Positions 1-55,829 of a DNA stretch of 64,000 bases are shown here, in pieces. Position 1 is the stretch's first letter; every line of letters starts with the position of its first letter. Under the pieces are notes generated by a model. That model saw only the letters and a list, made by a program, of their open reading frames with translations, was not told the origin of the DNA and searched no databases. The position numbers and the translations under genes were made by a program. The stretch spans positions 107,760-171,759 of the forward strand of contig JBDUUL010000001.1 of the NCBI GenBank assembly GCA_039938515.1, read 5' to 3'. This DNA is from Nitrososphaera sp. Its GTDB lineage: Archaea; Thermoproteota; Nitrososphaeria; Nitrososphaerales; Nitrososphaeraceae.

Positions 1-430
1 CCCGGTACGATTCATTCACGACCTTTTCTGGATCGATGTATTTGGCAAGGTACGAGGAGACTACGGCGTCAAACAAGTCTTCGCGAAACGGGAGCGACTC
101 GGCAGTGCCCTGAGCGGCCGGCACTCCTATTTTTCTCTCAAAAGCGAAGAGGAACTCCCTGGTCAAATCCAACCCTGCAAGCACTGAAATGTTCTCGTCG
201 CGAAGATGCTGTGAAAGTATTCCAGTACCGCACGCAAGATCCAACACCGCGGACGATGTCCTACTCAGCACCGAAACCTGCTTTTTCCATTTGATATCCT
301 GGTTCAGTGTCGCGCACTTTACCACAAAATCGTATGAGGTCGCAGTCTTGCTTGTAAAGAATCGCCTTGCAGTCCGGTAATCCGCATTCGCCGTCAACGA
401 CTTACTATCTCTATTCAGTCTATTATGCAT
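1..430 (-). CDS. class I SAM-dependent methyltransferase, N-terminal part (gene runs off the left window edge)
   Basis: Absent from the ORF track because the window edge truncates it. My translation of the minus strand from the ATG at 430-428 gives MHNRLNRDSKSLTANADYRTARRFF...SSAVLDLACGTGILSQHLRDE...AESLPFREDLFDAVVSSY. VLDLACGTG is SAM-binding motif I (UbiE/COQ5-like layout). Confidence 0.7.
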   Translation of the reverse strand, partial: MHNRLNRDSKSLTANADYRTARRFFTSKTATSYDFVVKCATLNQDIKWKKQVSVLSRTSSAVLDLACGTGILSQHLRDENISVLAGLDLTREFLFAFERKIGVPAAQGTAESLPFREDLFDAVVSSYLAKYIDPEKVVNESYR

Positions 431-451
431 TAGAATCTGCAGCCGCGTCCG

Positions 452-1198
452 GTGAGAGTTAAATGCCGAGGAGCCGCGTTATTGTTGTTGTACTTTATTA
501 ACTGGCAACGAACGGTGACGGTCGAGAGCAGGCAGGGGGAACAGGTGGTGATCAAGCGCACAAAGAACACCGCCAGATTTCATGAATTTCTGCTGGCCAG
601 TGCCTTCGCGCTCCTATCTGTGTTCTTGTGCCGTCCTTCGAGGCCGCCCGATCTTGCAAATGTTGTCGATAATGAAGGGGCTGAGATGAGAGAATTCCTC
701 GCAAGAATAGGGATACCGACGCCGAAGCTAGTTTTTGTTTCAAGGGAACTGCTGATAGAAGAGTACGTTGCAGGTGGAGACTTTATGAGATGGTTGATTT
801 GCGGAAAAGGTGACGCCGCCCCGCTCTCGTTTGAGGTGGGAAGGCTTACTGGATTAATGCACAAATCCGGACTCGTGTTCAACGACAACAAGGCTCAGAA
901 CTATCTCGTTGGTGAAGGCAACAAAATCGTGCGCACAGACTTGGCATTCATAAAAAAGACCAATTCGCTTTTTTCAAGGAGCATGGACGTGGGTTCATTT
1001 CTGTCTAGCGTAATCGGGCATCAGCAGTATCGAGAAATCGAGGAGCGCTTTTTTAGCGGGTACAAGCAGGAAACCGGACTCGGGTTTCCCTACCTGTCAA
1101 TAATTATTCGCAACATTCTCGCTCTGGGCATTTCGTCGGACATTATGGACGCTGCAAAGAATATGCTTAACAGCTCTGGGCATCTTCTCTCGGTCTAA
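452..1198 (+). CDS. protein-kinase-like fold protein (RIO/Bud32/lipid-kinase-like), GTG start
   Basis: 248-aa ORF. LVFNDNKAQNYLV resembles a kinase catalytic loop and IVRTDLAF resembles a DFG-like metal-binding segment. A TATA-like tattatgc lies about 26 nt upstream of the GTG. Subfamily not assignable. Confidence 0.5.
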   Translation: MRVKCRGAALLLLYFINWQRTVTVESRQGEQVVIKRTKNTARFHEFLLASAFALLSVFLCRPSRPPDLANVVDNEGAEMREFLARIGIPTPKLVFVSRELLIEEYVAGGDFMRWLICGKGDAAPLSFEVGRLTGLMHKSGLVFNDNKAQNYLVGEGNKIVRTDLAFIKKTNSLFSRSMDVGSFLSSVIGHQQYREIEERFFSGYKQETGLGFPYLSIIIRNILALGISSDIMDAAKNMLNSSGHLLSV

Positions 1199-1602
1199 AT
1201 GGGCGGAAGCTCTGCTTTCTTGTCAAACCCGCCGGAACCAAACTTACAGTAAAAACACTGGTCTGACTGCATGTAGGTCAATTTCAGAATAGTGATTGCT
1301 CCAACTTTGAGCGCCAATTTGGTCATGAAACGGTATTTGAACGGCATTGAAGGTATCACTTCGTTAAAGTACACGTCGTAGTGATCGGGGCAGAACTTTA
1401 GGGTAATCTGTGCCTTCTGGCGATACTCCTGCTCAACGTTGTCGTTATTCTCGCTAATGGTCTTGGCGACGTTGATTTGTTCTCTAATGTATTCATGCTT
1501 GGGGCAGGGACAATCCTTTCCGCCTGGGTGCTTGTATGCAGGCGTATTCTTCCAATCAAAGTCAGGATAATTTCGTTCGAAATCGTCCATGCTAGGCGGC
1601 AA
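1195..1602 (-). CDS. hypothetical protein, Cys/His-containing
   Basis: 135-aa ORF with a CPCPKH segment and a C-terminal CFYC segment. An internal ATG (MDDFERN) is the likelier start. No family recognised. Confidence 0.5.
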   Translation of the reverse strand: MPPSMDDFERNYPDFDWKNTPAYKHPGGKDCPCPKHEYIREQINVAKTISENNDNVEQEYRQKAQITLKFCPDHYDVYFNEVIPSMPFKYRFMTKLALKVGAITILKLTYMQSDQCFYCKFGSGGFDKKAELPPI

Positions 1603-1749
1603 TCTTATGCTTTCGTTAGCTTATAAACCTGTTTGATTAGGTAACGAAACCGGCCACTCTCAGGTCCTGAAATTTGGGAAGAAAACTTCTCGTACGGGGC
1701 TCGCATGAAAATAAATATATGGTTGAACCTGTAACAAGCCGTAAGCGAC

Positions 1750-2760
1750 GTGGTGCGAGACCAGCATAGCGATAGCGGCGCCGCGGCTTTGACAACTGCT
1801 GCCGCTCCTTCTGCTAATAATAATTCCGGTAATTCCCACGACTCCGACCCGAATCTTAAGACTCTTCTGGACTTCAAGAAGAGCGTCCAGGAAGAGCAAA
1901 AGCTAGCGGATAAGCGAATCCAAGAAATCAATGCTAGTCTCGAAGCTGTAAAGAAACAAATCGACGAAGAACGAGCACAGCTTGACGATCTGCGGGCCCG
2001 ACTGAAGCAGGTCAACGAAGAAAAAGACGTTGACTATCCAAAGTTTGTCGAATTGAGGATGAGTTTGGCCGATGCCAAAAGCCAGATGAAGACGCTGGAC
2101 GACAAGGTTGGCGGGGCAGTCGCAGCCAAATCACGCAGGGACAGGCTAGACATTCAGAACCTGACGAAATCCTTGGAGCAAATCGAGAGAGACATTCAAA
2201 CAAAAAAGCTTTCCAAGGACGAGGAGAGAAAACTCGTTACACGATCTAAGGAAATCGCAACCAAACTCCACACCTTGAAACTGATGCACAAAAAAGAGGA
2301 TCACTATCGTTCTATATCCGCACAATACGATGGCCTCAAGGACAAGGTCCGGGACATTTTCAGAAGAAAAGAGGAGTATGGAAACAAGATAGGCAAACTG
2401 AAGGAGAGCCTATCGACTCTTGTGAACCAGAGAGAAAACCTTTACGAGGAAAGAAGAGGAGCCATTCATACCGTACGTGAGTCAACGGCAAAACTCGAGA
2501 TGATAGACACACAGCTCAACGCTATCCACTACAAAAAGACCCGAATGCAGGCGGCCGAATACCGGCAGAGGCGGCAGAAAGAGACCGACGAGCGAAGGGT
2601 TGCAAGGCAGGAGGCAATGCAGGAACGCGCAAAGAGGGACAAAGAGTACATGGACAGGTGGAATACCCTCAAAGAGGCAGCGATGAAAAAGATGTCGAGT
2701 GGCGAAAAACTCACGTTCGATGAAATGAAGCTTATCTTTGGCGACAGCAGTTCGGAGTAA
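1750..2760 (+). CDS. conserved archaeal coiled-coil protein
   Basis: 336 aa and very rich in K/E/R/L/Q heptad-like sequence (LEAVKKQIDEERAQLDDLRARLKQVNEEK...). GTG start about 30 nt downstream of ataaatatat (1711-1720). Confidence 0.7.
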   Translation: MVRDQHSDSGAAALTTAAAPSANNNSGNSHDSDPNLKTLLDFKKSVQEEQKLADKRIQEINASLEAVKKQIDEERAQLDDLRARLKQVNEEKDVDYPKFVELRMSLADAKSQMKTLDDKVGGAVAAKSRRDRLDIQNLTKSLEQIERDIQTKKLSKDEERKLVTRSKEIATKLHTLKLMHKKEDHYRSISAQYDGLKDKVRDIFRRKEEYGNKIGKLKESLSTLVNQRENLYEERRGAIHTVRESTAKLEMIDTQLNAIHYKKTRMQAAEYRQRRQKETDERRVARQEAMQERAKRDKEYMDRWNTLKEAAMKKMSSGEKLTFDEMKLIFGDSSSE

Positions 2761-41277: not shown

Positions 41278-44200
41278 TTGACAAAAGGGTCCCCAATCAA
41301 TACGACTGGTAACAGAATTAGCCGAAGCAAGATATCGGCTGTTATATTTATCGTATTGATGCTTTCTTCTGCGATAATCCTATTAAATGGCTCTCGCAAT
41401 CCTAATGCGCTAGCAACAAATGCTGCAGACCATGCGTTAATAGTCCCAGAACCATTGGCGCCAACAAGTACTAGTATCAGCAAGAACCTTACGTTCCCTT
41501 CCACTATCTTGTTTGGTTCGCCACGGCTTAACGTAACATCGACAAACACGTTCTATCCTGATGGGCAGGCGTCAATCGGAGACGCAAATGGCAACCTACT
41601 TACTCTGGTGCCAAAAATTCTCACTGGCAACAATGTTTCAAATGGAAATTGGCAACTTCTCGCTAATTCGACAGTGATAGATCAGCGTTTTGTTTCACCG
41701 ACAATATCTCTTGATATGATATGGAAGACCCGGACCGATTCTGGTTATGCTAATGGTTACAAGCTCACTATCCAAGGCCGTGCCATAAACCCGTCAGAAA
41801 TTGATTTTAGTGTGGTTGATAATAGCACTCTGTCGCTCCTTAAAAGCAACAATCATGCGGTCCAGCTTTCCTCCGATGCTAGCCGCATCATAATCGGACA
41901 ACGCGCGGGCGACAACTCTACAAACACGGTGGGTGGAGTAGGCTTTGACTGGTCTGATGCAATTTCATACAAACCTATCTTTCAGTCAAATACTTTGAGG
42001 TTCAATGTGGCTTCTGACTTCAGCATCGATCCGTATACCGTCGTCACGACAACAGACAAGGCGTATGATGAATTTGGTCAACAACATCGGATTATTGTAG
42101 CAAACGATGGGGGCTGGTGGCTCTTTTATGGTGAAAGTACCTCACTAAAGTACGCAGTAAGCATTAATCATGGAAAGAATTGGACAACCTTTGCACCAGC
42201 TCTTGATACGCAAATCAATCAAAACAACTTGGACGTTGACTATATCAAAACAGGCACTTACGCTAACCGATTGCAGATAGTATTTGGAAGTAACGGCAAT
42301 GGCCACATCATACACTATTACGGAATACCTGTTGGAAATACAATAACCTGGAGCTCAAGACACGATCTGGGTGAATGTGGGGCCGTAAATACAAACACCT
42401 ACTACCCATCGGTTTTGGTTACAGGAAATAGTAGCGTCAGTGTAGTTTATGGATATATTTACAACTCTAATGCATTCTGTGAAGTTACCTCAAATGACGG
42501 TGGAAGCACTTTCGGCTCAACTGTAACTCTTAGCGCCAGACCCGGAGGGGCAGACAAATTCATGAATTTACACGCTCTAAATTCATCAAATGCAGATGAA
42601 ATGATTGTCGAGACCAACGCCAACGAATATGGCAGTCTCTTTTCTCTAAAACGCATAAGCGGCGTCTGGGATTCCTCTCGGACTACCATTACAACAGACA
42701 AGCTCTCAAGTCCAATAGACAACTTTGATTCAGACTATGATTCTTCGCACAGGGTCCATTTGGCTTACATCAAGAATGACAACACCCTCCAATACCGTAA
42801 GTACTCTGGCGGTGCATGGTCAAATGCGACTCAGCTTGATTCTGCTCAGGTCAGCGGTCCGATCTCCACTATGGTGGATCCCAGCCAAAACGTCTTCGTA
42901 TTTTACAACAAATCAAATGCAGTAAACTATGTTGAATCATCGAACGGCGGCAATACCTGGACCTCACCTCAGGCATTCACTACACACGGGGCCTCACCCT
43001 ATGGCATTGAAACGCCGCATAGGGCCTTTAACTCTGGGCTTTCATCGTTTATCCCTGTAATTTACGTCAATGGCACCTCCAGCCCGTACAAGATTTGGTC
43101 ATCAACTTTTGTTATCCCTACAACTGCTTCGTCAGACTCTCGTCTCGATTCAAGCGGTGAACAGCGCACGAGCTACTTTGATGGCACATACAACTGGATT
43201 TTCTACTATAATGGAACCAACATCTACTACAAGTATACTTCAGATGGAGGCATTACCTGGGGTACGCCGGTATCTAGCGGAACAGGCGCGTTAGCATCAA
43301 ATTCTTACTTTACGGTATATGGCGAAGGTAGCAAAATAATGATTGCGTATTCAAGCTCAACAAACGTCCTTACGAGGAACGGTACAATTAGCGGTACCTC
43401 TATTTCATGGTCCACTGCCAGAAGTGCGTTAGCAGTAACCGGAACAAACGCAGGTCAGCAGTTCTACCCTTCCATTGAAAAAGTGAACTCCACTTACTAT
43501 CTTGGTTTCAACGTAATGACGAGCAGTAATAATTCTGCCTTAGTTAGATCGTCTACCTCACTCGGAGGAGCCTGGTCACCCAGCGTAACCTTGTATAGCG
43601 GGCTAACAAACCCGGCAACAATTGGCCTATCAAAATATGGTACATCTCCTGGGACCAAGCTGTTTGTGCTGTATGCTCGATACAACGAATCTGATTTTGC
43701 ATACAGGACATTGACAAGCGCTTGGTCATCCACTTTGCACACCAGCGGCGCAGGCTTGTTTGTCAATCAATCAAAGACGAGTATATTTAGTGTAACAAGC
43801 AACGGCACATGCGTAATCGGTGGATATATCGGGAAAAATGCCGGTGGCAGTCTAGCATCGTTTACATTTTGCGGCAGTTCATTCACTTATCCAGCTACTC
43901 ACGTTCCGGGAAAAGTTCTGTATCCAACAATATCGGCGATTGGAAAGTATGCCTACCTGAGCTTTGTAACTAATAATACGATTTATCAAACCACATTTGT
44001 TCTGAACAATTGGAGCAGTTACAATCAACCATTCGGGAATTTTCTAACTAGTTCAACTTATTTACATGAACCAGAATATGGTAGCATTACTCATTGGGTT
44101 TACTCTGAACCGATTGTTTGGAGGGAAACCACCACTAGTCCATCGTCAATCTACCTCATTGCAAGTAACGTGGGATTCAAACCTTCGGGGATCCCGATAC

Positions 44201-45630
44201 TCAGCTGTTCTAGCCGCGGAGGAAATACTTCTGGGGACTCGATATGTGATTACTGGAAGAGCGGAAGCGGCTTAAACATCAACTACAATGGAAGCACTTA
44301 CTCCTATCCCTGTGATACTGTTTGTCCAGTATACAATCATAAGGACATTTACGTTGAGGCTGATTATACAACCGGTTTCAAGCCTTACTTCAATACAACG
44401 TCTGGCAAGTACACCGGGATGGAAGATGTCAGGACCGCTTTTGCCAATTCTCCAGTGACTAACCCTGATGGCCTGACAGGCGTAAATCTGCACTATAATG
44501 TTGGTGAAGACAGCGGTGCCCACTACTATCTTAACCTTAGCCCTACAACCTTCTACGACATCAAGACAAACTTCTTCGGGACATCGGCGGAGAGGCAATA
44601 CAGCCAGAACGCGATAATGGAGAGTAGCTACCTGACCGCCAAGTGGCAAATATTTCATTATGCTGTATTTGGCGAGAGACAAAGTGGAATGAATATCAAT
44701 GCCACCGGTATAGCAGATATTAATGGAAACGATATTCTGATAACTTTGGCCGCATTTACTAACCCGCCTGCTTCCGTGTCAGATGAAGAAGGTACGTTCA
44801 TGCATGAGTTGGGCCACAATCTGGGGTTGAATCATGGTGGTCCTACTGATGGCACAAACTGCAAGCCGAACTATCTCAGCGTCATGAATTATTTCTTCTC
44901 GACTATAAGGATCGTTTCCGACAGGCCGTTGGATTATTCGCGCTCGATACTAACGTCTCTGAATGAATCAAACCTGAGTGAACCCGCGGGTGTAAGCACA
45001 TCTACGCCGCCGGGGCTCCAAACTGCTTTTGGAAATAATATAACAAACGCCTCAATTGACTTAGGAAGTACGGGTGGTGTTCCAGTTGATTGGAATAGGC
45101 ACGGCGGACCGGTGGACACACACGTAGTTGAAAACATCAATAATGCGGGCGGCGATTCCTTCTGCAATAACACTCTGTTTACCGTACTCACAGGAGCGAA
45201 CGATTGGTCCAACTTGAAATATGACTTCAGGGACAGCGTATCTGGATACTTTAGCAACGGTGAAGCAGATCCTGGAACACTACCACATGAACTGGACGCA
45301 TCCGCATTAAAGCGGGTAGAGGCCGGAATGGTACTTTCAATTGATAACGCAGTCCAATCATCTGGAGACTCAAACTTCACCAATATGATGTCAGCCAAAG
45401 CATCCAAGCTATATTTCCACAGCTCGTTTGCGACGGCCAAATCACTTATGGAAAAGGGGGACGTATACGGTGCGCTACAGATACTATTGGAGGTGAGGAC
45501 AAAGATTGTCGGCGATTCAGGTGGGGACAACCATGGCGTTCTGTTGGTTAACAACCAGACACAACATAGGATATTATTCCTATTGGACAATAGGATCGCA
45601 GCATTAAAGAGCGAATTGAACCTCGCATGA
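41278..45630 (+). CDS. giant secreted/anchored protein: BNR/Asp-box propeller region(s) plus C-terminal metzincin protease domain
   Basis: 1450 aa. N-terminal signal anchor (ISAVIFIVLMLSSAIILL). Asp-box-like motifs: SINHGKNWT, SNDGGSTFG, SSNGGNTWT, TSDGGITWG. HELGHNLGLNHGG is followed by a Met-turn candidate (LSVMNY). TTG start 23 nt after ttatatat (41248-41255). Confidence 0.85.
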   Translation: MTKGSPINTTGNRISRSKISAVIFIVLMLSSAIILLNGSRNPNALATNAADHALIVPEPLAPTSTSISKNLTFPSTILFGSPRLNVTSTNTFYPDGQASIGDANGNLLTLVPKILTGNNVSNGNWQLLANSTVIDQRFVSPTISLDMIWKTRTDSGYANGYKLTIQGRAINPSEIDFSVVDNSTLSLLKSNNHAVQLSSDASRIIIGQRAGDNSTNTVGGVGFDWSDAISYKPIFQSNTLRFNVASDFSIDPYTVVTTTDKAYDEFGQQHRIIVANDGGWWLFYGESTSLKYAVSINHGKNWTTFAPALDTQINQNNLDVDYIKTGTYANRLQIVFGSNGNGHIIHYYGIPVGNTITWSSRHDLGECGAVNTNTYYPSVLVTGNSSVSVVYGYIYNSNAFCEVTSNDGGSTFGSTVTLSARPGGADKFMNLHALNSSNADEMIVETNANEYGSLFSLKRISGVWDSSRTTITTDKLSSPIDNFDSDYDSSHRVHLAYIKNDNTLQYRKYSGGAWSNATQLDSAQVSGPISTMVDPSQNVFVFYNKSNAVNYVESSNGGNTWTSPQAFTTHGASPYGIETPHRAFNSGLSSFIPVIYVNGTSSPYKIWSSTFVIPTTASSDSRLDSSGEQRTSYFDGTYNWIFYYNGTNIYYKYTSDGGITWGTPVSSGTGALASNSYFTVYGEGSKIMIAYSSSTNVLTRNGTISGTSISWSTARSALAVTGTNAGQQFYPSIEKVNSTYYLGFNVMTSSNNSALVRSSTSLGGAWSPSVTLYSGLTNPATIGLSKYGTSPGTKLFVLYARYNESDFAYRTLTSAWSSTLHTSGAGLFVNQSKTSIFSVTSNGTCVIGGYIGKNAGGSLASFTFCGSSFTYPATHVPGKVLYPTISAIGKYAYLSFVTNNTIYQTTFVLNNWSSYNQPFGNFLTSSTYLHEPEYGSITHWVYSEPIVWRETTTSPSSIYLIASNVGFKPSGIPILSCSSRGGNTSGDSICDYWKSGSGLNINYNGSTYSYPCDTVCPVYNHKDIYVEADYTTGFKPYFNTTSGKYTGMEDVRTAFANSPVTNPDGLTGVNLHYNVGEDSGAHYYLNLSPTTFYDIKTNFFGTSAERQYSQNAIMESSYLTAKWQIFHYAVFGERQSGMNINATGIADINGNDILITLAAFTNPPASVSDEEGTFMHELGHNLGLNHGGPTDGTNCKPNYLSVMNYFFSTIRIVSDRPLDYSRSILTSLNESNLSEPAGVSTSTPPGLQTAFGNNITNASIDLGSTGGVPVDWNRHGGPVDTHVVENINNAGGDSFCNNTLFTVLTGANDWSNLKYDFRDSVSGYFSNGEADPGTLPHELDASALKRVEAGMVLSIDNAVQSSGDSNFTNMMSAKASKLYFHSSFATAKSLMEKGDVYGALQILLEVRTKIVGDSGGDNHGVLLVNNQTQHRILFLLDNRIAALKSELNLA
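44803..44835 (+). other. metzincin zinc-binding motif HELGHNLGLNH
   Basis: In-frame codons cat gag ttg ggc cac aat ctg ggg ttg aat cat, matching HExxHxxGxxH. Confidence 0.8.
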
Positions 45631-46775
45631 GCATCTCAAAGAAGCGGTTATGTGCAATATTTATGATGGGCTCCGCCGCCCTTTTTCTTCAGCTGGGTAT
45701 TCTTCAACATGTCAGTGCGGAGGCGGTAACCTCTAATCCGTTCCGTGTTGGAGTACATCCATTCGATGTAGCCATTAATAACAACACTCACAAGGTCTTT
45801 GTTTCGGATTTGCAAGGGTATTCCGTATTTGTCTTTGATGATTCGGCCCAAAGAGTCATTGGTAATATCTCTTTACTTGATGTCAGTCCCGAATTGAAGT
45901 TTGATTACGAACCAACGTATTTGGCTGTGGACCCTACCACAAATAGGCTCTATGTAACTTATGAATGCGATTGCCATCCGAGTTATATCTCAGTAATAGA
46001 TGGGGCAACTTACAAAGTCGTTGACAAGATCACAATTCCTAATCTGCCAACGGGCATCGCGCTTAACCACTTGACGAACAAGATCTATATCACTTATGGC
46101 AACAACGAGACTACTGTCTTAGATGGTGCCACGCAAAAGATCATCTCAAACATTACAACTCAAGTTCCGATTTCCAAAGTAGCAGTGGATATGAAGACTA
46201 ACCGAATCTATCTCGGAACAAGCTCATCCGGCGAGGTGCTGATTGCTGATGGCAATTCCGACAGCGTGATCGGAACAATCCCGCTGCATGTTGGAGCAAG
46301 AATAGCCGATTTGGCAGTCAATGAAAAATCCAATCTGGTCTATGCTCTAAGCACCTCCACGAGTGCTGGATCTGGCGACCTGCCTGTTCCCTCAGCAACT
46401 TTGAGTATTGTAGACGGTCAAAGCAACACAGTCATTGGCAAGAGCATTCCGATAGGCTCATCGGGCGGAATTGCGATTGACGAAGCGCATAATCGGACAT
46501 TTATTAGCCAAAATTACGGAAATTCTATCTTTACAGTGAATCAATCAGACAACATGACAACTTTCTCAAACCTAATGGTTGGTGAGAAGTATTATCCAAA
46601 TCGGTTGGCTTTTAGTGGCGATTCAGGCCACCTTTATGCAGTAACTACAGGCACATACGTTATGCTATCAATTGGGTCACAAGAGCTTCCGACCCCAGAG
46701 TTCTCATCATCAACCTCTTTCATTGTAGCTGGAGTTGCAGTTACCCTGATTGTCCTTTTGCGAAAGCGACTTTAA
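45627..46775 (+). CDS. YVTN-type beta-propeller repeat protein with signal peptide and PEF-CTERM-like anchor
   Basis: 382 aa with recurring ~40-aa units (NKVFVSD, NRLYVTY, NKIYITY, NRIYLGT, NLVYALS). Its ATG overlaps the upstream stop (ATGA). The C-terminus is PTPEFSSSTSFIVAGVAVTLIVLLRKRL. Confidence 0.8.
   Translation: MSISKKRLCAIFMMGSAALFLQLGILQHVSAEAVTSNPFRVGVHPFDVAINNNTHKVFVSDLQGYSVFVFDDSAQRVIGNISLLDVSPELKFDYEPTYLAVDPTTNRLYVTYECDCHPSYISVIDGATYKVVDKITIPNLPTGIALNHLTNKIYITYGNNETTVLDGATQKIISNITTQVPISKVAVDMKTNRIYLGTSSSGEVLIADGNSDSVIGTIPLHVGARIADLAVNEKSNLVYALSTSTSAGSGDLPVPSATLSIVDGQSNTVIGKSIPIGSSGGIAIDEAHNRTFISQNYGNSIFTVNQSDNMTTFSNLMVGEKYYPNRLAFSGDSGHLYAVTTGTYVMLSIGSQELPTPEFSSSTSFIVAGVAVTLIVLLRKRL
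46689..46772 (+). other. PEF-CTERM-like sorting signal (P-E-F, TM helix, basic tail)
   Basis: The last 28 codons encode PTPEFSSSTSFIVAGVAVTLIVLLRKRL. This tripartite shape is characteristic of archaeosortase/exosortase-type C-terminal signals. Confidence 0.55.
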
Positions 46776-46838: not shown

Positions 46839-47165
46839 TCAATGCCAAGTTCGTGAATTTCTTGTATTACAACACAAAGATTGTGGCATAGAATCTTCGA
46901 GCACCTCGTTTAGCTGAGCAACTCTGTCCTTGCTCCTAACGTTGTCCTTGAACTTGGACTTTATCATGTGAAATACCGTTTCGCAATTGGAACGCTGATG
47001 ATAGTGTTTCATGAACTCTTCTTGGTTTAACATAAAATAATGGTACATCTTGCGCCAGGCTTGAGAACCATTGGCGTTCTGTACCGCGTTCTTTTTGAAT
47101 GGAATGAAAGGTGTGGCACCTAAGGAGTCTACAAAGCGATAGTTGGCTCTGCTCGAATATGCCAT
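46839..47165 (-). pseudogene. C-terminal remnant of an IS4/IS5-type DDE transposase
   Basis: 108 aa. DMAYSSRANYRFVDSLGATPFIPFKKN is the second-Asp region. YHQRSNCETVFHMIKSKFKDNVRSK is the Y-x2-R-x3-E region. An in-frame stop lies 5 codons upstream of the ATG and no N-terminal DDE part is present. The extreme C-terminus looks scrambled. Confidence 0.7.
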
Positions 47166-47310: not shown

Positions 47311-50300
47311 TTGTCAGCGTTAGGTAGGATACCCTCCAGCCGAGGTTCTAAGCTTCGCCTTGTTTCAATTACCTGTATGGCGGTTCTGCTTCTTGCTGTG
47401 TTATTGCCTACCTTGAGCCACTCCAACTTACCTCGCGCCTCTGCTCTCGTTCTGACTCCAAGTGTTAATCGGCCAAGCAGCAGTTCTTTGAGCTCTGTAC
47501 AATTCAATTCAATTGATTCGATGACGCACGGTACTGCAAGTCCGACTCACATCATAATTTTACAGGATTCGCAATCGTGCAGTATTATTAGTGGCAATTG
47601 GAGTGAAACGGGCAATCTGTGCAATCTTACCGAGCCATCTGCGATTAATTCAACGACAGAGATTGATGTGATAAATGGTGTAACGCTGCAGACTAGTATT
47701 TCTGACACTATTGGTCAGCTAAATAACACTGGCAAAATTGTAGTTTTAAAAGGAGGCATTTTGAACAACTTTGGGCTTGACCATCTTTACAATTATGGAA
47801 ATATTACTATTGAACATGGGGGTGCTTTGTATAATTATGGTTCCACGATAATCAACACAAACGGAGCCTTTGTACAAAATGGAGGCGAAATTGAGAATCA
47901 AGGCGGAACAATACTCAATGATGCGGCTTCATCTTTTACGATAACTGCTGGAGGTGATTTGTACTTCAACAGAGGAAGCAGCTTCAGTAATTTTGGAATA
48001 CTGGTCGATAATGGAAGCTGGGAGGTTACGGGTGGGATTTATAATAATGCTACGGGCGAGATAATCAACAATGCCGTCTTGTCGTTGGATGGCGAATTTG
48101 GAGCGCCAGACATACATTTTACAAATTATGGACAGGTTCTGAATAGCGCCGGCGCAAATCTCACATTGTACAATGGAGCAGGCTTGGCAAACTATGGGCT
48201 AGTTTCAAACGCTGGAAATCTTGCGTATTTCGGCGGGACCGTTGCAAATCAGCCGTCCGGTGTGATAAACAACCTCATCACCGGGCTTGTTGACCCAAGT
48301 TTCTTAAATAATTCCGGAATAATTAACAACTATGGTAGTTTTGAATCTTCAACAAGTGCATCAGTCACAAACGCTGGCACTATTACCGATTTCTGCAATG
48401 CAGTATTTAACACCAATCCGCCGAATACGTATTCTGGCACTCCAATAGTAACTATACCGTGTTCCGCCTTCCCAATCACTTGGATGTCAGACACTACTGC
48501 ATCAGGTGGCACGTCAGTCTACGCCAAAAAGCAAATGAGCACAGAATTTGTCAGTATTACGTCAGCATTGAAAGGCCGGCAGATAGACTCTATGTCTCTT
48601 CAACTTGATAGGGTCGGTCACCCAACGGGTGCTGTCCAAGTCGGCGTTTTTGCACCTGACTTGTCTCTTAAGCAGCTCTTCGGTTCAATTGATGCTTCAA
48701 GCCTGAGCACTACGTATACAAATTATGCCTTCCAGCTCCCGAATAACCAGCTATACACAATCCAGTCCGGCGATTATATCGGCGTAAAGTTTGCAGGCGG
48801 CGATTCTTCAAACTATGTGATGGTCATGCGTGACTGGTCGAATAAATTTGACGGCACGAACTCGTTCAGGGCATGGTACAATACTACATGGTGGAATTAT
48901 CTGGGCGACGACCTTGACATGGTGCTCAAACAAACACATCCTGTCCTCAAAGCGCCTGAAGCAATATCAATAACTTCAACGAGCAACCTCTCTCCAAGAT
49001 GGGGCGTTGACACCGTGTCAATATCTGGCACAACCACCAACAGCGTCAGCAGCGACTCGGTGTCTGTTAATTGGGGCGATGGCTCAACTACATCGGGCAT
49101 TGCAATATCTTCAGGTACTTGGACTTCGCCCACACATACCTATTCTGCTTCAGCAGTTGGTAGCAGGACAATTGCAGCAACGTTGGGCAATAGTAGTATG
49201 TCCGTCAAGGCGACTAGCAATTCCGTTTCAGTCACTGTTCAAAGACACGCCACATCCGCCTCCCTTGTTCTTTCCTCGACAACTATTCCAGCAGGCAGTA
49301 CCATAACAGCGTCAGGAATCTTGGTTGACAGCGATGCGGCAAATGCCAAGATTTCTGGAAGCTCGATCACATTTACAGGCACTGGTGCAGTAAACCTCGC
49401 TAGCACGATAACAAATGGTACTGGTGGCTACTCGTCTGCTGGACCTTCTCCTAATACGGTTGCGAACGGCTGGACGGTACAAGCACACTATGCAGGCAAT
49501 GCAAGTTATGCTCCAACAGACAGCCCGGCTGTAAGTTATACCACAAGCGCCATTGGCTTGTCGTACCCAATTACACAAATGTCTGACACCACTGCTTCAG
49601 GTGGCACTTCGGTTTATTCTGCAAAGCAGGCAGATATGGAGCTCGTTACCAACACGTCTGCTCTCGTAGGCAAGCCGATTGACTTGATAACGATGCGCAT
49701 GGCAAAATCTGGAAGTCCAACTGGAATACTACAGGTAGGTGTATTTTCAAAGAATTTGGCGGTCAAGACGTTGTTCGGGACTCTGAATGCTTCTGCGATT
49801 ACAGGCACTTACAGCAATTACACCTTCCAGCTCTCAAATAACCAATTATACACAATTCAATCAGGTGACTACATCGGAGTAAAGTACACCGGCGGTAACT
49901 CTTTGAACTATATTCTCGTGATGCGCGACTGGCTAAACAAATTTGATGGTACAAACTCATTCAGATCTTGGTATAACACCACGTGGTGGAATTATACTGG
50001 AGATGATCTGTATATGACTCTGAAACAGACGCATCCAGCATCGCTTTATCCCTTAACTGTCATGGACGATCAGGCTGCATCTGGAACAACGCCTGTATAC
50101 TTTGGACACCATTTGGATGCAGAATCCTTTACAGGTGCTTCAGTTGCGGTTAACAAAAAGATAGACACCATTACGCTGCAGCTTGCTAAAACAGGTAATG
50201 TGCAGGGGCCTGTGGCCATAGGAATATTCCATCGGAATTTATCCACTTACAAGGCGTATTACAACGGCACATGGAATTACAACTCACAACCAAATGCCCT

Positions 50301-51015
50301 AATTGACCTGAGCATGGTCTTGGAAAATTCGCAGTTGCGGTCATCGCACGAGTCAGTTGTGATGTATGAACCAACGTCATATCAACCCGTATCCGTGTAC
50401 TCTGCAAAGTCAGTAGAGGCGGAATATATCACAAATACGTCCTCTATTGTCAACAAGCAAATTGACACCATTACGCTGCAGCTTTCAAAGGTGAACAATC
50501 CTACCGGAACATTTCAAATCGGGGTATTCAATCCAGACACCTCTGTAAAGCAGCTATTCGGCACCATGAATGCGTCGGCGCTGACGTCGACATCAACAAG
50601 TTATCCTTTTCAGCTTCCCAGCAAACTGTTGTACACGATACAATCCGGGGACTATATTGGAATTAGATTTACGGGCGGTGATGCCAGCAACTACATCTTG
50701 GTAATGACGGATTTTGAGCATAGAGACGGAAAAGACCTGCAGCTCTTCGGATCCATAGACACCTCAGAGCTGACCTCCACTCCAACCAAGTATTCATTTC
50801 AACTACCCAACAATGCACTATATACAATTCAGGCAGGGGATTGGATAGGCGTCAAGTACAATGGCGGCGACGCTAGCAATTACATATCTGTCATGAGAGA
50901 TGCGACAAACAAATTCGATGGAACTAATGCTGAGAGGGTGATATACGGTCTCCAGTATATAGTCTACATGCAAGGTGATGACTTGACAATGACCCTGCAG
51001 CAAACCCACGGCTAA
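47311..51015 (+). CDS. giant secreted protein: Asn/Gly-rich solenoid-like head, PKD domain, Ig-like module and four copies of an unrecognised ~157-aa domain
   Basis: 1234 aa. TTG start 25 nt after ttttataa (47279-47286). Signal anchor ITCMAVLLLAVLLPTL. PKD signature VNWGDGSTTSG...THTYSA. Repeats are described separately. Confidence 0.85.
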   Translation: MSALGRIPSSRGSKLRLVSITCMAVLLLAVLLPTLSHSNLPRASALVLTPSVNRPSSSSLSSVQFNSIDSMTHGTASPTHIIILQDSQSCSIISGNWSETGNLCNLTEPSAINSTTEIDVINGVTLQTSISDTIGQLNNTGKIVVLKGGILNNFGLDHLYNYGNITIEHGGALYNYGSTIINTNGAFVQNGGEIENQGGTILNDAASSFTITAGGDLYFNRGSSFSNFGILVDNGSWEVTGGIYNNATGEIINNAVLSLDGEFGAPDIHFTNYGQVLNSAGANLTLYNGAGLANYGLVSNAGNLAYFGGTVANQPSGVINNLITGLVDPSFLNNSGIINNYGSFESSTSASVTNAGTITDFCNAVFNTNPPNTYSGTPIVTIPCSAFPITWMSDTTASGGTSVYAKKQMSTEFVSITSALKGRQIDSMSLQLDRVGHPTGAVQVGVFAPDLSLKQLFGSIDASSLSTTYTNYAFQLPNNQLYTIQSGDYIGVKFAGGDSSNYVMVMRDWSNKFDGTNSFRAWYNTTWWNYLGDDLDMVLKQTHPVLKAPEAISITSTSNLSPRWGVDTVSISGTTTNSVSSDSVSVNWGDGSTTSGIAISSGTWTSPTHTYSASAVGSRTIAATLGNSSMSVKATSNSVSVTVQRHATSASLVLSSTTIPAGSTITASGILVDSDAANAKISGSSITFTGTGAVNLASTITNGTGGYSSAGPSPNTVANGWTVQAHYAGNASYAPTDSPAVSYTTSAIGLSYPITQMSDTTASGGTSVYSAKQADMELVTNTSALVGKPIDLITMRMAKSGSPTGILQVGVFSKNLAVKTLFGTLNASAITGTYSNYTFQLSNNQLYTIQSGDYIGVKYTGGNSLNYILVMRDWLNKFDGTNSFRSWYNTTWWNYTGDDLYMTLKQTHPASLYPLTVMDDQAASGTTPVYFGHHLDAESFTGASVAVNKKIDTITLQLAKTGNVQGPVAIGIFHRNLSTYKAYYNGTWNYNSQPNALIDLSMVLENSQLRSSHESVVMYEPTSYQPVSVYSAKSVEAEYITNTSSIVNKQIDTITLQLSKVNNPTGTFQIGVFNPDTSVKQLFGTMNASALTSTSTSYPFQLPSKLLYTIQSGDYIGIRFTGGDASNYILVMTDFEHRDGKDLQLFGSIDTSELTSTPTKYSFQLPNNALYTIQAGDWIGVKYNGGDASNYISVMRDATNKFDGTNAERVIYGLQYIVYMQGDDLTMTLQQTHG
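48472..48942 (+). repeat. protein-level repeat R1 (157 aa) of the novel domain
   Basis: PITWMSDTTASGGTSVYAKKQ...LYTIQSGDYIGVKFAGGDSSNYVMVMRDWSNKFDGTNSFRAWYNTTWWNYLGDDLDMVLKQTHP. Confidence 0.85.
49567..50037 (+). repeat. protein-level repeat R2 (157 aa) of the novel domain
   Basis: PITQMSDTTASGGTSVYSAKQ...LYTIQSGDYIGVKYTGGNSLNYILVMRDWLNKFDGTNSFRSWYNTTWWNYTGDDLYMTLKQTHP. It is collinear with R1 but diverged at many synonymous sites. Confidence 0.85.
50050..50331 (+). repeat. repeat R3 (94 aa), lacking the middle segment
   Basis: PLTVMDDQAASGTTPVYFGHH...IDTITLQLAKTGNVQGPVAIGIFHRNLS is joined directly to the tail-like YKAYYNGTWNYNSQPNALIDLSMVLENS. Confidence 0.7.
50353..51012 (+). repeat. repeat R4 (about 220 aa), with the middle segment duplicated
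   Basis: The block LFG..(N/D)(A/T)S.L(T/S)ST.T.Y.FQLP...LYTIQ.GD.IG(I/V)(R/K)..GGDASNYI.VM.D occurs twice in succession before the tail DDLTMTLQQTHG. Confidence 0.75.
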
Positions 51016-51124: not shown

Positions 51125-52633
51125 TTAACCAGAAATGAGGATGGTATACGATACTGCAGGCACTAGGTCTTGATTGCTCTCGCTATTTGAGAGATAGACC
51201 ATCAGAGTATATGCCCCACGCCCTTTTTCCGCCTCTGCAGCACCCATGTTAAACTTGACGCTAAATGTCGAGCCGTCATCGCTCCAGTTAGATGCCTCAA
51301 TGATGGGATGGCTCAAGTCTTGTTGGTATTCGTAGCCCGGCGGTGCCGGCTTGACCACTGAGCGCAACTGCTCCCCGCCGTCGTACGATGTTCTCTTGGC
51401 ATTAGCAAGGTAAACATCGTGAGTAGGAAACGGGTCATAGTTTACGGTTATAGCCTTGATTGAATAGCCTGATGCTACTGGCAGATACTTGCCAGTTAAT
51501 GAAATTGAATTGCCATTTGTTGTAATTGGCATGCTCAGCGAGACATAGTCGTTTTCAAAATTCTGCACCATAACTACTCCAAGATTGTTGTGAGCAATGC
51601 CAATGCTCACGCTTGTATGGTGTGCATCAAGAATGTTGTTCCTGTGTCCATTGTTACAGCACTGAAGATCGCCATTTACCATTCCATCCTCCTCGTTGCT
51701 AACTGCAGTCTGGACGTCAGTGGCACTCAATGGAATTGACTGAGCGGCTGAAAAGCAACAAGTCAGTGCGACATTCTGTTCGACATAATCTTTGCCGCCA
51801 TACCTAGTAAATGACATGTACGGTTTTTCTCCGCTGGTCATCCAATGTGAAATTTGCATTGTGCTGGCAATGTCTTCCGCCTGAGCTTGTGCAGCACCAT
51901 TAGTGCTCAAGGTCACGGGCGCAAGACCTGCACTTGCCCTGTCTTTATTGATTAGGTCCAGCGCAGTTTGCTTCAATACGTCAAGGGAAGGCGGCTGGGA
52001 TGCGGGAGGAGTGGGAGTCACAGGTGCAGCATATGAAAATATCTGAACCTGCTCAATGTCCGTTTCATTTCCTGCTTTGACTTCAAGCTGGTAGGTGTTG
52101 CCGGCGTCAATTGACTTGATTTTTCCTATGTTCAATACGTAAACTAGTCTCGTGCTGCTGGGCTCAATTGAAATCGAGCCCTGCTGCAGGTGGACATCGC
52201 CTGAGCCAAGTTGCAAGCCGTATGAGGGAGCAAAGTCAGGCTGCAGGACGGTATTTGATGCGGCTACGCAACCGCTGCATGAATACCAGTCGGTAGACGG
52301 TGAGTCAATACCGCGCAGCGATATTGACTTTATCTCTGCTGCCATGTTCCCAGTGTTAGTAATCACGATTGCTCCAGTCGCAGATCCATTAGATGCAGCC
52401 CAAGCGCTAGCCTCCGTGACTCTTATGAAAATGTATTTTTGGACAGGCGGAGCCACTTCGGGCTGCGGCGTTATTTCGGCTGGCTGAGAATTGAGAGGCG
52501 GGCTTGGCGCAGTGCCTTGGTCACTTGAAACAGATGTCGAAGCGACGTTTCCAATTCGGGCTGGAATCGATGCAAGCCTGTCTAGCGAGGGCAAAGTGTG
52601 ACCAGTTACAAAGTACATCGAGGTACCAACCAC
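51125..52633 (-). CDS. secreted CAP/SCP (YkwD-like) domain protein, paralog 1
   Basis: 502 aa. LDLINKDRASAGLAPVTLSTNGAAQAQAEDIA...HW...VEQNVA...CCNNGHRNNILDAHHTSVSIGIA is the bacterial-type CAP pattern. The N-terminal start is problematic (see findings). Confidence 0.8.
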   Translation of the reverse strand: MVGTSMYFVTGHTLPSLDRLASIPARIGNVASTSVSSDQGTAPSPPLNSQPAEITPQPEVAPPVQKYIFIRVTEASAWAASNGSATGAIVITNTGNMAAEIKSISLRGIDSPSTDWYSCSGCVAASNTVLQPDFAPSYGLQLGSGDVHLQQGSISIEPSSTRLVYVLNIGKIKSIDAGNTYQLEVKAGNETDIEQVQIFSYAAPVTPTPPASQPPSLDVLKQTALDLINKDRASAGLAPVTLSTNGAAQAQAEDIASTMQISHWMTSGEKPYMSFTRYGGKDYVEQNVALTCCFSAAQSIPLSATDVQTAVSNEEDGMVNGDLQCCNNGHRNNILDAHHTSVSIGIAHNNLGVVMVQNFENDYVSLSMPITTNGNSISLTGKYLPVASGYSIKAITVNYDPFPTHDVYLANAKRTSYDGGEQLRSVVKPAPPGYEYQQDLSHPIIEASNWSDDGSTFSVKFNMGAAEAEKGRGAYTLMVYLSNSESNQDLVPAVSYTILISG

Positions 52634-52888: not shown

Positions 52889-53485
52889 GTGTCTTATGAG
52901 GAAGGCAAGATCGGAGACGAATCTGGAGAGTGGTTCGAGCGATACGTTCAATCGATCTTCAGATATGCGGGATTCAGGACAGAGCGGCGTAAACGGTTTT
53001 TTCACACTGTAAAGCACGAGATTGATGTTTGGGCAGAATCTGAATTTGCCATAGTCGCAGTAGAATGTAAGGACTGGAGCAATTTGCGCCCTGAAAATAT
53101 CAAAAGCCAGATGGATGGGTTTATTCACAAAGTCAGAGTCCTTAATGCATCTGCTGGCGTTTTTGCCATTAACTTGCCCGGCAGGGAGGTGTATGGCAGA
53201 CATAGAGAGTACTTAAAAGAAAATGGTCTGACTTTGTGGGACGGAACTGACGTCCAGAAATGGCACGAGGACATGGAGCGGTACAGTCAGGATCGCTATC
53301 AAAGAGAACTTTGCGATGCTCTGGGCATTGAAATCTATGCACAAACAAATGCAGAAAAGTCGTTCAAGGTTCTAAAGGCGTTTGGCAAAGCAGCCCTCAA
53401 AGGCGCGGTACAGGTTGGCAAGAGCATGCTCGAGGAGGAAAAGCCGCGGAAGCGGAGGCGAACTGCCCGAAGTAGACGGTATTGA
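52889..53485 (+). CDS. Mrr-like PD-(D/E)xK restriction-endonuclease-fold protein with a basic C-terminal tail
   Basis: 198 aa. FERYVQSIFRYAGFRTERRK...HEIDVWAESEFAIVAVECKDW fits the D...E-x-K core. The tail is EEEKPRKRRRTARSRRY. Confidence 0.65.
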   Translation: MSYEEGKIGDESGEWFERYVQSIFRYAGFRTERRKRFFHTVKHEIDVWAESEFAIVAVECKDWSNLRPENIKSQMDGFIHKVRVLNASAGVFAINLPGREVYGRHREYLKENGLTLWDGTDVQKWHEDMERYSQDRYQRELCDALGIEIYAQTNAEKSFKVLKAFGKAALKGAVQVGKSMLEEEKPRKRRRTARSRRY

Positions 53486-54449: not shown

Positions 54450-55829
54450 ATGTTCGGCAAAAAGCTGGCATTTGCGATATTTTTGTCAGCCTCGCTTATT
54501 GCGCTGCCGCTTGGCACGCTTTCAGCTGCAGCAAATAACAACGCTGCTCACTTTATGGTACTGCGAGGCACTCCCGTTGTGCTGTATGCATCAGTCCAGA
54601 ATGACAATAATTCTCCGCGGCCGTTTGTAGCAATAATTGAGGTGCTGGATTCTAACGGAGTCGTCGACTCAATTCAGTTAAAAGACGACATTCTATCAGC
54701 TAATGACCATAAGACTGTCCAGAGCACATGGCTGGCAGACACAACTGGTAACTATTCAGTGATATCATTTGTAGTTGACAGCCTCAACAAGCCTCGCATA
54801 CTATCCCAGCCTCAGACCACTTTCGTAAGCGTAGTGGAGATTCCAACGGTTTCCTTGACAATTGACAAGAGTATAGGGAACCAAACCGCCCAGCCGTCAC
54901 AAGATACTGAGTATCATCCACAGGCTGCTGCCAACAATACGCAGAACAGCCTGAGTGCTGCACACAAACCGTCACTAGACGAGCTTCTGCAATATGCGCT
55001 CAAGGCAATCAATCATGATAGGGAAAAGTACGGCTTGTCTGATGTGAGGTTAAGTTCAAACCAAGCGGCTCAGGCTCATGCTCAGGACATGTATAACAAT
55101 TGGTACCCAACTCACTGGACTTCAGACGGAATGAAGCCATACATGCGATATACGGCCTATGGCGGCAATGGCTATGTGGTCCAAAATGTTGCTGCCGGCC
55201 CATCATACGACAATGCCACAATAGCTCAATGCAAGAGTGATCCTTCAGAATGCTATACGGTCGACCCGTACAAGGAGATTGACCATGCAGAATATGCAAT
55301 GATGTACAATGACTCTGCCTGCTGCGAGGACGGCCACAGAGACAACATACTTGACAAGTACCATACAGATGTTAGCATAGGCATCATCTACGACGACTAC
55401 TACTTTGCAATAGTGCAGAATTTTGAGAACAACTACATTCAGTATGACAAGCCCATAACTAAGGATAATAGAACGCTCGAGTTTTCGGGGAAGATCTTGT
55501 CTAGTACTCCAACCAGTGGAGGCGTACTAGCCGACGTCGAAATTAACTATGATGACGTACCCACTCACGCAGTTTACCTTGCAGACAGGGATCGCACCTC
55601 TTATGACGAAGGCACCTTTATCGGCGGAGTAAGCCCCGACAGTTCGTACTACGTTGACGCAAAGACTATTCTGGCGTCAAGGTGGGATGCTACAACTGGC
55701 TCAATTGACCTGTCATTTGACCTCTCTCCAATCCTTGACAAGAAGGGCGTCTATACCGTCTATGTTTACCTTGAAGACAGAAATGGTAATCAGTTTCCTG
55801 TTACCTCACATTCCATTTTCAACAGCTAG
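54450..55829 (+). CDS. secreted CAP/SCP (YkwD-like) domain protein, paralog 2
   Basis: 459 aa. Signal peptide (LAFAIFLSASLIALPLGTLSAAA). ALKAINHDREKYGLSDVRLSSNQAAQAHAQDM...HW...VVQNVA...CCEDGHRDNILDKYHTDVSIGII. The C-terminal domain is collinear with paralog 1. Confidence 0.8.
   Translation: MFGKKLAFAIFLSASLIALPLGTLSAAANNNAAHFMVLRGTPVVLYASVQNDNNSPRPFVAIIEVLDSNGVVDSIQLKDDILSANDHKTVQSTWLADTTGNYSVISFVVDSLNKPRILSQPQTTFVSVVEIPTVSLTIDKSIGNQTAQPSQDTEYHPQAAANNTQNSLSAAHKPSLDELLQYALKAINHDREKYGLSDVRLSSNQAAQAHAQDMYNNWYPTHWTSDGMKPYMRYTAYGGNGYVVQNVAAGPSYDNATIAQCKSDPSECYTVDPYKEIDHAEYAMMYNDSACCEDGHRDNILDKYHTDVSIGIIYDDYYFAIVQNFENNYIQYDKPITKDNRTLEFSGKILSSTPTSGGVLADVEINYDDVPTHAVYLADRDRTSYDEGTFIGGVSPDSSYYVDAKTILASRWDATTGSIDLSFDLSPILDKKGVYTVYVYLEDRNGNQFPVTSHSIFNS

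Follow-up and report, generated by a model that had tools for sequence, protein, structure and literature searches.

The window analysed here is a stretch of 64,000 nucleotides (nt) from Nitrososphaera sp. (assembly GCA_039938515.1, contig JBDUUL010000001.1, positions 107,760 to 171,759 of the forward strand). The subject of this work is an open reading frame (ORF) of 1234 amino acids (aa) in the window, and above all the arrangement of repeated domain segments in its C-terminal part. The N-terminus of the encoded protein resembles a signal peptide, with a basic stretch ahead of a hydrophobic one, and the composition is rich in Ser, Thr, Gly and Asn; N-glycosylation sequons showed no enrichment (23 observed vs 22.3 expected). 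The neighbouring ORFs have the domain content expected for secreted proteins. The product is most likely a secreted multidomain protein from a Nitrososphaera-like ammonia-oxidising archaeon, assigned to the archaea by the distribution of its relatives. An earlier note on this DNA had described four copies, R1 to R4, of an unrecognised extracellular domain within the ORF, R3 lacking the middle part and the adjacent R4 carrying it twice, and had read this as the footprint of unequal exchange between neighbouring repeats. The last copy forms the immediate C-terminal end of the protein.

Three segments are distinguished in the domain: A (positions 1-62), B (63-128) and C (129-157). The four pairs of coordinates given for the repeats are in frame and translate as described (Table 1). 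In the protein self-comparison R1 and R2, both A-B-C, were 67.5% identical over 157 aa (expectation value E 4.5e-75). R4 matched R1 twice, with aa 1018-1138 against R1 392-512 (51% identity, E 1.4e-42) and aa 1144-1233 against R1 455-543 (64%, E 1.4e-35); on the family hidden Markov model (HMM) the two parts cover 3-123 and 67-155, so that the middle segment occurs twice. The head of R3 (aa 914-983, HMM 1-70) was 31-37% identical to R1 and R2 (E 1e-11 to 8e-18), and its tail gave a weak match in the self-comparison (E 0.016). Scored on an HMM of the C segment, tail residues 979-1006 reached 15.2 bits, the maximum in about 1,900 scored shuffles being 9.9. Judged by this profile score, the R3 tail is best taken as a real C segment.

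The segment order of R3 is A(1-65)-C(131-157), and that of R4 is A-B(1-128)-K-B-C(63-64, 68-157). Self-comparison and HMM coordinates thus agree with the description of R3 as a repeat without its middle and of R4 as one with two. The piece missing from R3 (approximately positions 66-130) and the extra piece of R4 (63-128 minus 65-67) correspond closely, not exactly. Moreover, R3 and R4 are segmentally related to R1 and R2, with the breakpoints of both repeats at the same two loops. A3 retains E25, S31, G53 and G58, and C3 retains W140, D147 and L152. Instead of four copies, the ORF is better described as having two intact ones, R1 and R2, and two copy-equivalents ordered A-C-A-B-B-C.

Table 1. 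Features of the ORF and of its repeat segments, in window coordinates.
Feature	Coordinates	Strand	Remarks
1234-aa ORF	47311..51015	+	TTG start as listed; ATG at 47377
N-terminal G/N-rich repeat region	47446..48471 (aa ~46-387)	+	Cys...Cys motif at its end, just before R1
R1, intact copy	48472..48942 (aa 388-544)	+	A 1-62, B 63-128, C 129-157
Spacer R1-R2, 208 aa	48943..49566	+	WGDGS motif; weak Big_3_5 Ig-like match below cutoff
R2, intact copy	49567..50037 (aa 753-909)	+	translation, self-comparison, family HMM
A3, head of R3	50050..50244 (aa 914-978, domain positions 1-65)	+	HMM 1-70, E 1.3e-14
21-nt string in A3 (codons DTITLQL)	50164..50184	+	identical to 50464..50484
C3, C-segment-like tail of R3	50245..50331 (aa 979-1007, domain positions ~131-157)	+	C-segment HMM score
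A4-B4a, head and first middle of R4	50353..50730 (aa 1015-1140, positions 1-128)	+	HMM 3-123, E 2.6e-48
21-nt string in A4 (codons DTITLQL)	50464..50484	+	identical to 50164..50184
B4b-C4, second middle and tail of R4	50734..51012 (aa 1142-1234, positions 63-64 and 68-157)	+	HMM 67-155, E 4.6e-32

The repeated unit is an undescribed domain of about 155 residues that belongs to a large family, recovered solely from ammonia-oxidising archaea. The suspicion that it lies outside the described families held: nothing in Pfam or NCBIfam scored at or above cutoff for R1, R2, R4 or the whole ORF, no Pfam family recurred across the 54 family members scanned, and PDB sequences gave no match at E ≤ 1 for the whole ORF, with a best profile match of only E 0.21. 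The sole Pfam scores on the window protein were T9SS_plug_1st (PF17116; 22.4 vs a cutoff of 23.9) and KMPT-N (PF20294; 23.0 vs 28.9). Both are sub-threshold and local (26-29 residues), each in one of the 54 members, and membership in either was rejected as chance β-strand similarity. CBM_4_9 also matched one of the 54 (E 0.0078). An exhaustive phmmer search with R2 against 1.84 billion cluster representatives returned 583 representatives at E ≤ 1e-3, of which 292 reached E ≤ 1e-10 and 117 reached E ≤ 1e-30; a word-indexed protein search gave 2 matches, or 16 with a profile, all of them short proteins. A pattern scan over prokaryotic genomes, one for each species, recovered 26 loci, all of them in Nitrososphaeria (Nitrososphaera, Nitrosotalea, Nitrosarchaeum and Nitrosopumilales). 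The architecture survey covered the best 151 relatives and the window protein. Each of these 152 proteins had one to five domain matches, and in 83 the domain ended no more than 12 aa from the C-terminus.

Many partial matches to the family HMM lay away from the protein ends, and their breaks clustered at HMM 62-67. At least six relatives contain a split domain with a whole extra copy inside it, most at loop 62-66 and up to three levels deep. The simplest form was observed in P0037, where A (47-110) is followed by a complete copy (113-269) and then by B-C (274-368), with E values of 4e-24, 2e-61 and 2e-25. P0145, and apparently P0130, have the same one-level form, whereas P0032 has two nested levels (A, A, complete copy, B-C, B-C). 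In P0030 and in the inner pair of P0069 the split falls near position 92-94, and 604 aa lie between the outer halves of P0069, with a further nested pair in between. In relatives with one copy inside, the host halves are 155-171 aa apart. The exposed loop 62-66, between strands 5 and 6, tolerates insertion of a whole copy in this family.

P0034 was considered as an A[ABC ABC]BC intermediate and dropped on inspection, as it proved to be a single host with a copy in each of two loops (about 46/52 and 62/66). In P0034 (aa 210-690) the first insert begins only at HMM 15, and behind it comes 'TITVMDDEE', which is similar to the first strand that the insert lacks. P0034 may be another permutation-like case.

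Taken together, R3 and R4 have the same split form. The N-part (aa 914-983, HMM 1-70) and the C-part (aa 1143-1232, HMM 67-155) abut in profile coordinates and flank an insert of 159 aa. This gap contains C3 (about 28 aa), a linker of ~7-10 aa, A4 and B4a, which amounts to one copy's worth in the order C-A-B. Since most of these relatives are split at 62-66 and their one-copy gaps are 155-171 aa long, and the window gap is 159 aa, parsing the region as a truncated copy plus an internally duplicated copy is probably wrong. We propose that R3/R4 is a split host copy around an inserted copy-equivalent, made locally from tandem copies, and consider the chances of this reading to be about even. The host copy would consist of A3 and B4b-C4, interrupted at the 62-66 loop, and the insert of C3, the linker and A4-B4a. 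In the nested relatives the inner C follows the inner B, whereas in the window only ~1-5 residues separate B4a from B4b and the C-like segment precedes A4, lying 7-10 aa upstream of A4-B4a, which is the order of a circular permutation. If C3 supplies the three C-terminal strands, the insert would be a circularly permuted copy (C-A-B). The permutation is proposed here, not proven.

The alignment of the region with its relatives is compatible with this arrangement. A MAFFT alignment was made of aa 910-1234, 12 natural tandem pairs and 4 nested relatives. In it A3 falls on the outer A of the nested relatives and A4-B4a on the first A-B of the tandem pairs; B4b-C4 falls on the second B-C of the tandem pairs as well as on the outer B-C of the nested relatives. 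The C-linker-A of the tandem pairs was left as an insertion relative to the window. By this alignment R4 resembles a fusion of two tandem copies from which C-linker-A was lost, and R3 a copy without B.

Three pairings of the segments are conceivable, (i) A3+C3+B4b with A4+B4a+C4, (ii) A3+C3+B4a with A4+B4b+C4, and (iii) A3+B4b+C4 around C3+A4+B4a. Only pairing (iii) keeps the contiguous pairs A4-B4a and B4b-C4 together. It needs only close chain termini and a 62-66 loop that tolerates insertion, as the nested relatives already show. For pairings (i) and (ii), positions 63-65 would also have to lie next to positions 128-131 in the fold.

We modelled aa 910-1234 with AlphaFold2 from a contiguity-based alignment (A5), which gave a mean predicted local distance difference test (pLDDT) of 83.1 and a predicted template modelling score (pTM) of 0.57. 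In A3 all five canonical strands were formed (pLDDT 87-97). A4 did not form its first strand (62-74), and the rest of A4, B4a and B4b reached 89-98. The junction HRDGK was below 50, and C4 was at 75-88. The model supports A3 as part of a predicted fold and is neutral on C3; as a whole it has the look expected of a host of A3, B4b and C4 with an insert that has no C strands.

Several observations weigh against the split host copy with a permuted insert. In the model C3 and the linker (aa 977-1012) were strandless with pLDDT below 50, in a stretch that no alignment row covers, so that the permuted-copy part gains no structural support from the model, an outcome that is neutral rather than negative. 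The alignment itself holds the nested relatives and contiguity-based rows and hence favours the host-copy pairing. MAFFT stacks all homologous B segments in one column block, which makes a neutral cover of both B segments impossible. No other member among the 152 proteins has the order C-A-B, and neither the genome scan with R2 nor the metagenome scan with R3-R4 returned an orthologue with this arrangement. A3 and C3 are also the most diverged pieces (31-50% and 21-46% identity to other copies), and A3 lacks L33, which is invariant in the other copies. Moreover, the putative role of the domain in glycan binding or surface adhesion is deduced only from the fold class and the partner domains.

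All pieces of R1-R4 are anciently diverged, and there was no recent exchange among them. R1 and R2 had 63.9% nucleotide identity, with proportions of synonymous and non-synonymous differences of 0.886 (saturated) and 0.207. Saturation at synonymous sites together with few non-synonymous differences indicates an old duplication with the protein under purifying selection, as the earlier note had argued for these two full-length copies. In all paralogous segment pairs the proportion of synonymous differences (pS) was 0.64-1.09, saturated or nearly so, and non-synonymous differences were fewer than synonymous ones. The two middles of R4 (B4a and B4b) were 60-61% identical in protein with pS 0.895, which makes their doubling ancient. 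Their mutual identity was no higher than that to copies in other proteins, and B4b was nearer to the B of R1 (73%) than to B4a. The idea of unequal exchange could be kept only in part: the segmental kinship and the shared breakpoint loops agree with it, whereas the divergence speaks against a recent event, in which the exchanged segments should be much more alike than other copies.

The C segments of R1 (48856..48942) and R2 (49951..50037) were 86% identical in protein, compared to 58% for the A segments. Gene conversion between the two tails was rejected, with synonymous sites saturated and a nucleotide identity of 71%. The similarity reflects constraint, and in these two copies the last three strands are much more constrained than the rest of the domain. 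Between R1 and the closest relative, L003, non-synonymous and synonymous divergence were dN 0.08 and dS 1.43. The two 21-nt strings noted previously are indeed identical and form the longest exact repeat in 48472..51015, the next being 12 nt. They fall in A3 and A4, the most diverged head pair (41% protein identity); a micro-conversion tract, constraint at the nucleotide level and chance are possible causes.

Another explanation, which we regard as unlikely, is that R3 is a copy without its middle and R4 a separate copy with a doubled middle, produced by misaligned exchange or slippage between similar loop motifs; the head and tail of R3 would then either borrow the spare R4 middle in trans (a segment swap) or form a non-canonical mini-domain. 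The arithmetic of the segments is complementary, with one A, B and C each for two copies, both junction loops carry the motif F-x4-S, with the R3 junction readable from either, A3 and C3 are adjacent and similarly diverged, and full-length canonical rows align as A4-B4a-gap-C4, all of which this explanation would accommodate. However, the two products of a single reciprocal exchange, one with the deletion and one with the duplication, end up on separate molecules and cannot stand in the same gene, so that at least two events are needed, and none has left a trace of being recent. The explanation also works only if positions 63-65 lie beside 128-131 in the fold, and it separates either A4-B4a or B4b-C4, both of which are contiguous. 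It leaves aside that relatives across the family are split at this very loop around a one-copy gap, and C3 is unpacked in the AlphaFold2 model.

It is improbable, in our view, that R3-R4 is a lineage-specific appendage under relaxed constraint, in which A3 and/or C3 are vestigial and linker-like and only part of R4 works. The closest relative ends after its second copy, C3 was modelled as disordered, and A3 and C3 have the highest non-synonymous divergence (0.37-0.56), as such an appendage would have. Against this, the reading frame of the R3-R4 region is intact over 325 codons despite saturated synonymous divergence, both pieces keep the conserved residues listed above, A3 was modelled with high pLDDT, and A, B and C are each still present exactly twice. 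An artefact of repeat-driven assembly is hardly credible: the region is repetitive and the contig of draft type, but the copies are 43-72% identical in nucleotides and the 21-nt repeat is far too short to mislead an assembler. The intact frame and the analogous split copies in independent metagenomic proteins argue against an artefact as well.

In terms of origin, the split host copy appears to have arisen within the local lineage. The closest relative of the window protein (P0007, locus L003) has 72% nucleotide identity over 48114..49913 and contains the same N-terminal module, R1, the spacer and a second copy, after which it ends; the DNA downstream of P0007 on L003 holds no R3/R4. The best match of every R3/R4 segment lies among canonical copies from one and the same close clade (P0001, P0007, P0031 and P0036) and not in the nested proteins, which indicates that the arrangement arose locally and independently of the nested relatives. 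The breakpoint loops share the F-x4-S motif 66 codons apart, as FAPDLS and FSKNLA at the A/B boundary and FDGTNS at B/C, and the R3 junction FHRNLS/TYKAYY can be read from either loop. Starting from three tandem copies of the local clade, two loop-to-loop deletions would suffice, one taking B out of the first copy and the other taking out C-linker-A across the second and third, so that A, B and C are each lost exactly once. We infer this intragenic rearrangement, the shortest path that we found, as one possible route. Separately, L003 (JGI 3300045256, Ga0484956_0081837; 98..2011) ends in MTLEQTHG and a stop, nearer to the end of the window protein (MTLQQTHG and a stop) than to the end of R2 (KQTHP and the linker). 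The terminal tail C4 may be the ancestral C-terminus.

Circular permutation can arise by duplication and deletion of tandem copies. The stretch C-linker-A-B (aa 979-1140) resembles the outcome of this model, being the remainder of a tandem pair minus the first A-B and the last C, and the window linker has a length like that in natural tandem pairs (5-16 aa). In contrast to the model, the putative permutant of the window would sit inside another copy. A broader proposal would be that the family inserts copies into itself recursively, at no fewer than three loops (about 46-52, 62-66 and 92-94) and to three levels, and that the window holds an extreme, permuted nested copy made by two local loop-to-loop deletions. 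We hold this proposal tentatively and think it somewhat less than probable.

The nested insertions of cyanobacterial RNA polymerase are homologous sandwich-barrel hybrid motif domains. The likeness to the present family is that the chain is interrupted by a complete domain, recursively (A1-B1-C-B2-A2; PMC13114784), and domain insertion, recursive nesting included, is already known (PMC13114784). The RNA polymerase nesting concerns another fold and another lineage, whereas here the proteins are extracellular, host and guest are of the same family up to three levels deep, and the nesting recurs in separate proteins, mostly at loop 62-66. The notable feature is this recurrent insertion of a domain into its own homologue, mostly at one loop.

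The AlphaFold2 model of R1, based on a 54-row family alignment, had pLDDT 97.8 and pTM 0.92, with twelve β strands and no helices. The domain is probably a jelly-roll-type sandwich that represents a new sequence family. Foldseek found no match to the R1 model in the PDB at E ≤ 1e-3; the best were jelly-roll sandwiches with template modelling (TM) scores of at most 0.52, including phage cement/capsid proteins, picornavirus capsid proteins, the carbohydrate-binding modules CBM36 (1ux7) and CBM6 (1uxx and 1gmm), and the lectin-like domain of Cwp84. Among predicted viral structures (BFVD) there were seven matches at E ≤ 1e-3 (best E 9.3e-6, TM-score 0.51-0.69, identity 11-18%), and those carrying names were phage minor-tail or tail-fibre-type proteins. 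Their phage-fibre counterparts in the PDB matched with E ≥ 8e-3. Mean-field direct coupling analysis (200 copies, effective number 184) was used to ask whether the two breakpoint loops, or the chain termini, lie next to each other; it was dropped, as consistent strand ladders did not emerge from its top pairs.

Like CBM6 and CBM36, the domain is an all-β sandwich of similar size that occurs singly or in multiple copies on secreted proteins; those modules sit on carbohydrate-active enzymes, and the enzyme partners of the present family, CE4-type deacetylases and chitobiase-C domains, form a parallel to that attachment. There is no sequence relationship to CBM6 or CBM36 and no CBM_6 Pfam match, and Foldseek gave E 1.3e-2 to 2.3e-2 with a TM-score of 0.37, below the value of about 0.5 that, with a sequence profile match, would place the domain in these families. 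The partner domains, observed in eight relatives, were Polysacc_deac_1 (CE4), CHB_HEX_C_1/Fn3_assoc, fn3, Ig-like, HYR, right-handed Beta_helix and cadherin-like Ig.

All structural neighbours are weak; the best are the distal jelly rolls of phage tail-fibre and minor-tail proteins (BFVD A0A5Q2W5L8, A0A2Z5XVF2 and A7KUS7; PDB 8zdp and 8ke9; sequence identity 10-18%), which are likewise terminal modules and serve surface recognition. They are viral, whereas the present family was found only in Nitrososphaeria genomes and has no trimerisation or fibre context. We also observed three metagenomic proteins of 1892-2713 aa (P0050, P0072 and P0106) with 4-5 diverged copies, 29-32% identical to R2; their glycine-rich or proline-rich linkers recall the glycine-rich phage minor tail proteins, to which these neighbours belong.

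Soil Nitrososphaerales are reported to raise the expression of exported polysaccharide deacetylases and of further surface and extracellular-polymer genes during attached growth, and to depend on surface modification and extracellular polymer when they grow in aggregates and biofilms (PMC11561398). The induction of deacetylases during attached growth fits the partner domains and says nothing direct about the window gene.

With at least several hundred sequence clusters, no Pfam or NCBIfam entry and no solved structure, the domain could be defined and named; many big proteins that are featureless at present would thereby gain annotation over large parts of their length. The family also supplies numerous independent natural cases of a domain inside its own homologue, useful for studying how a β-sandwich tolerates interruption of the chain and possibly permutation. 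It is also a possible test set for domain parsers and structure predictors, which are prone to mis-parse such proteins as truncated and duplicated copies.

The G/N-rich region at the N-terminus had no Pfam match (aa ~46-387) and precedes the domain in P0004, P0007 and P0009 as well. Its short repeats end in an 'IPC(S/A)(A/E)FP' Cys...Cys motif directly ahead of R1, and it forms a second unannotated module.

Upstream of the ORF lies a gene for a 1450-aa protein (41278..45630) with a HELGHNLGLNHGG zinc-metalloprotease motif and a Reprolysin-like match below cutoff; its stop overlaps the start of an NHL-type β-propeller gene (45627..46775). Past the ORF there are two CAP-domain paralogues on opposite strands, at 51125..52633 (minus strand) and 54450..55829, and between them a gene (52889..53485) for a protein with an Mrr-type restriction endonuclease domain. 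On the minus strand at 46839..47165, a 108-aa truncated DDE transposase was detected (Pfam DDE_Tnp_1, E 7.4e-7, profile positions 85-190 of 200). This insertion-sequence remnant lies directly upstream of the ORF start, beside the rearranged gene.

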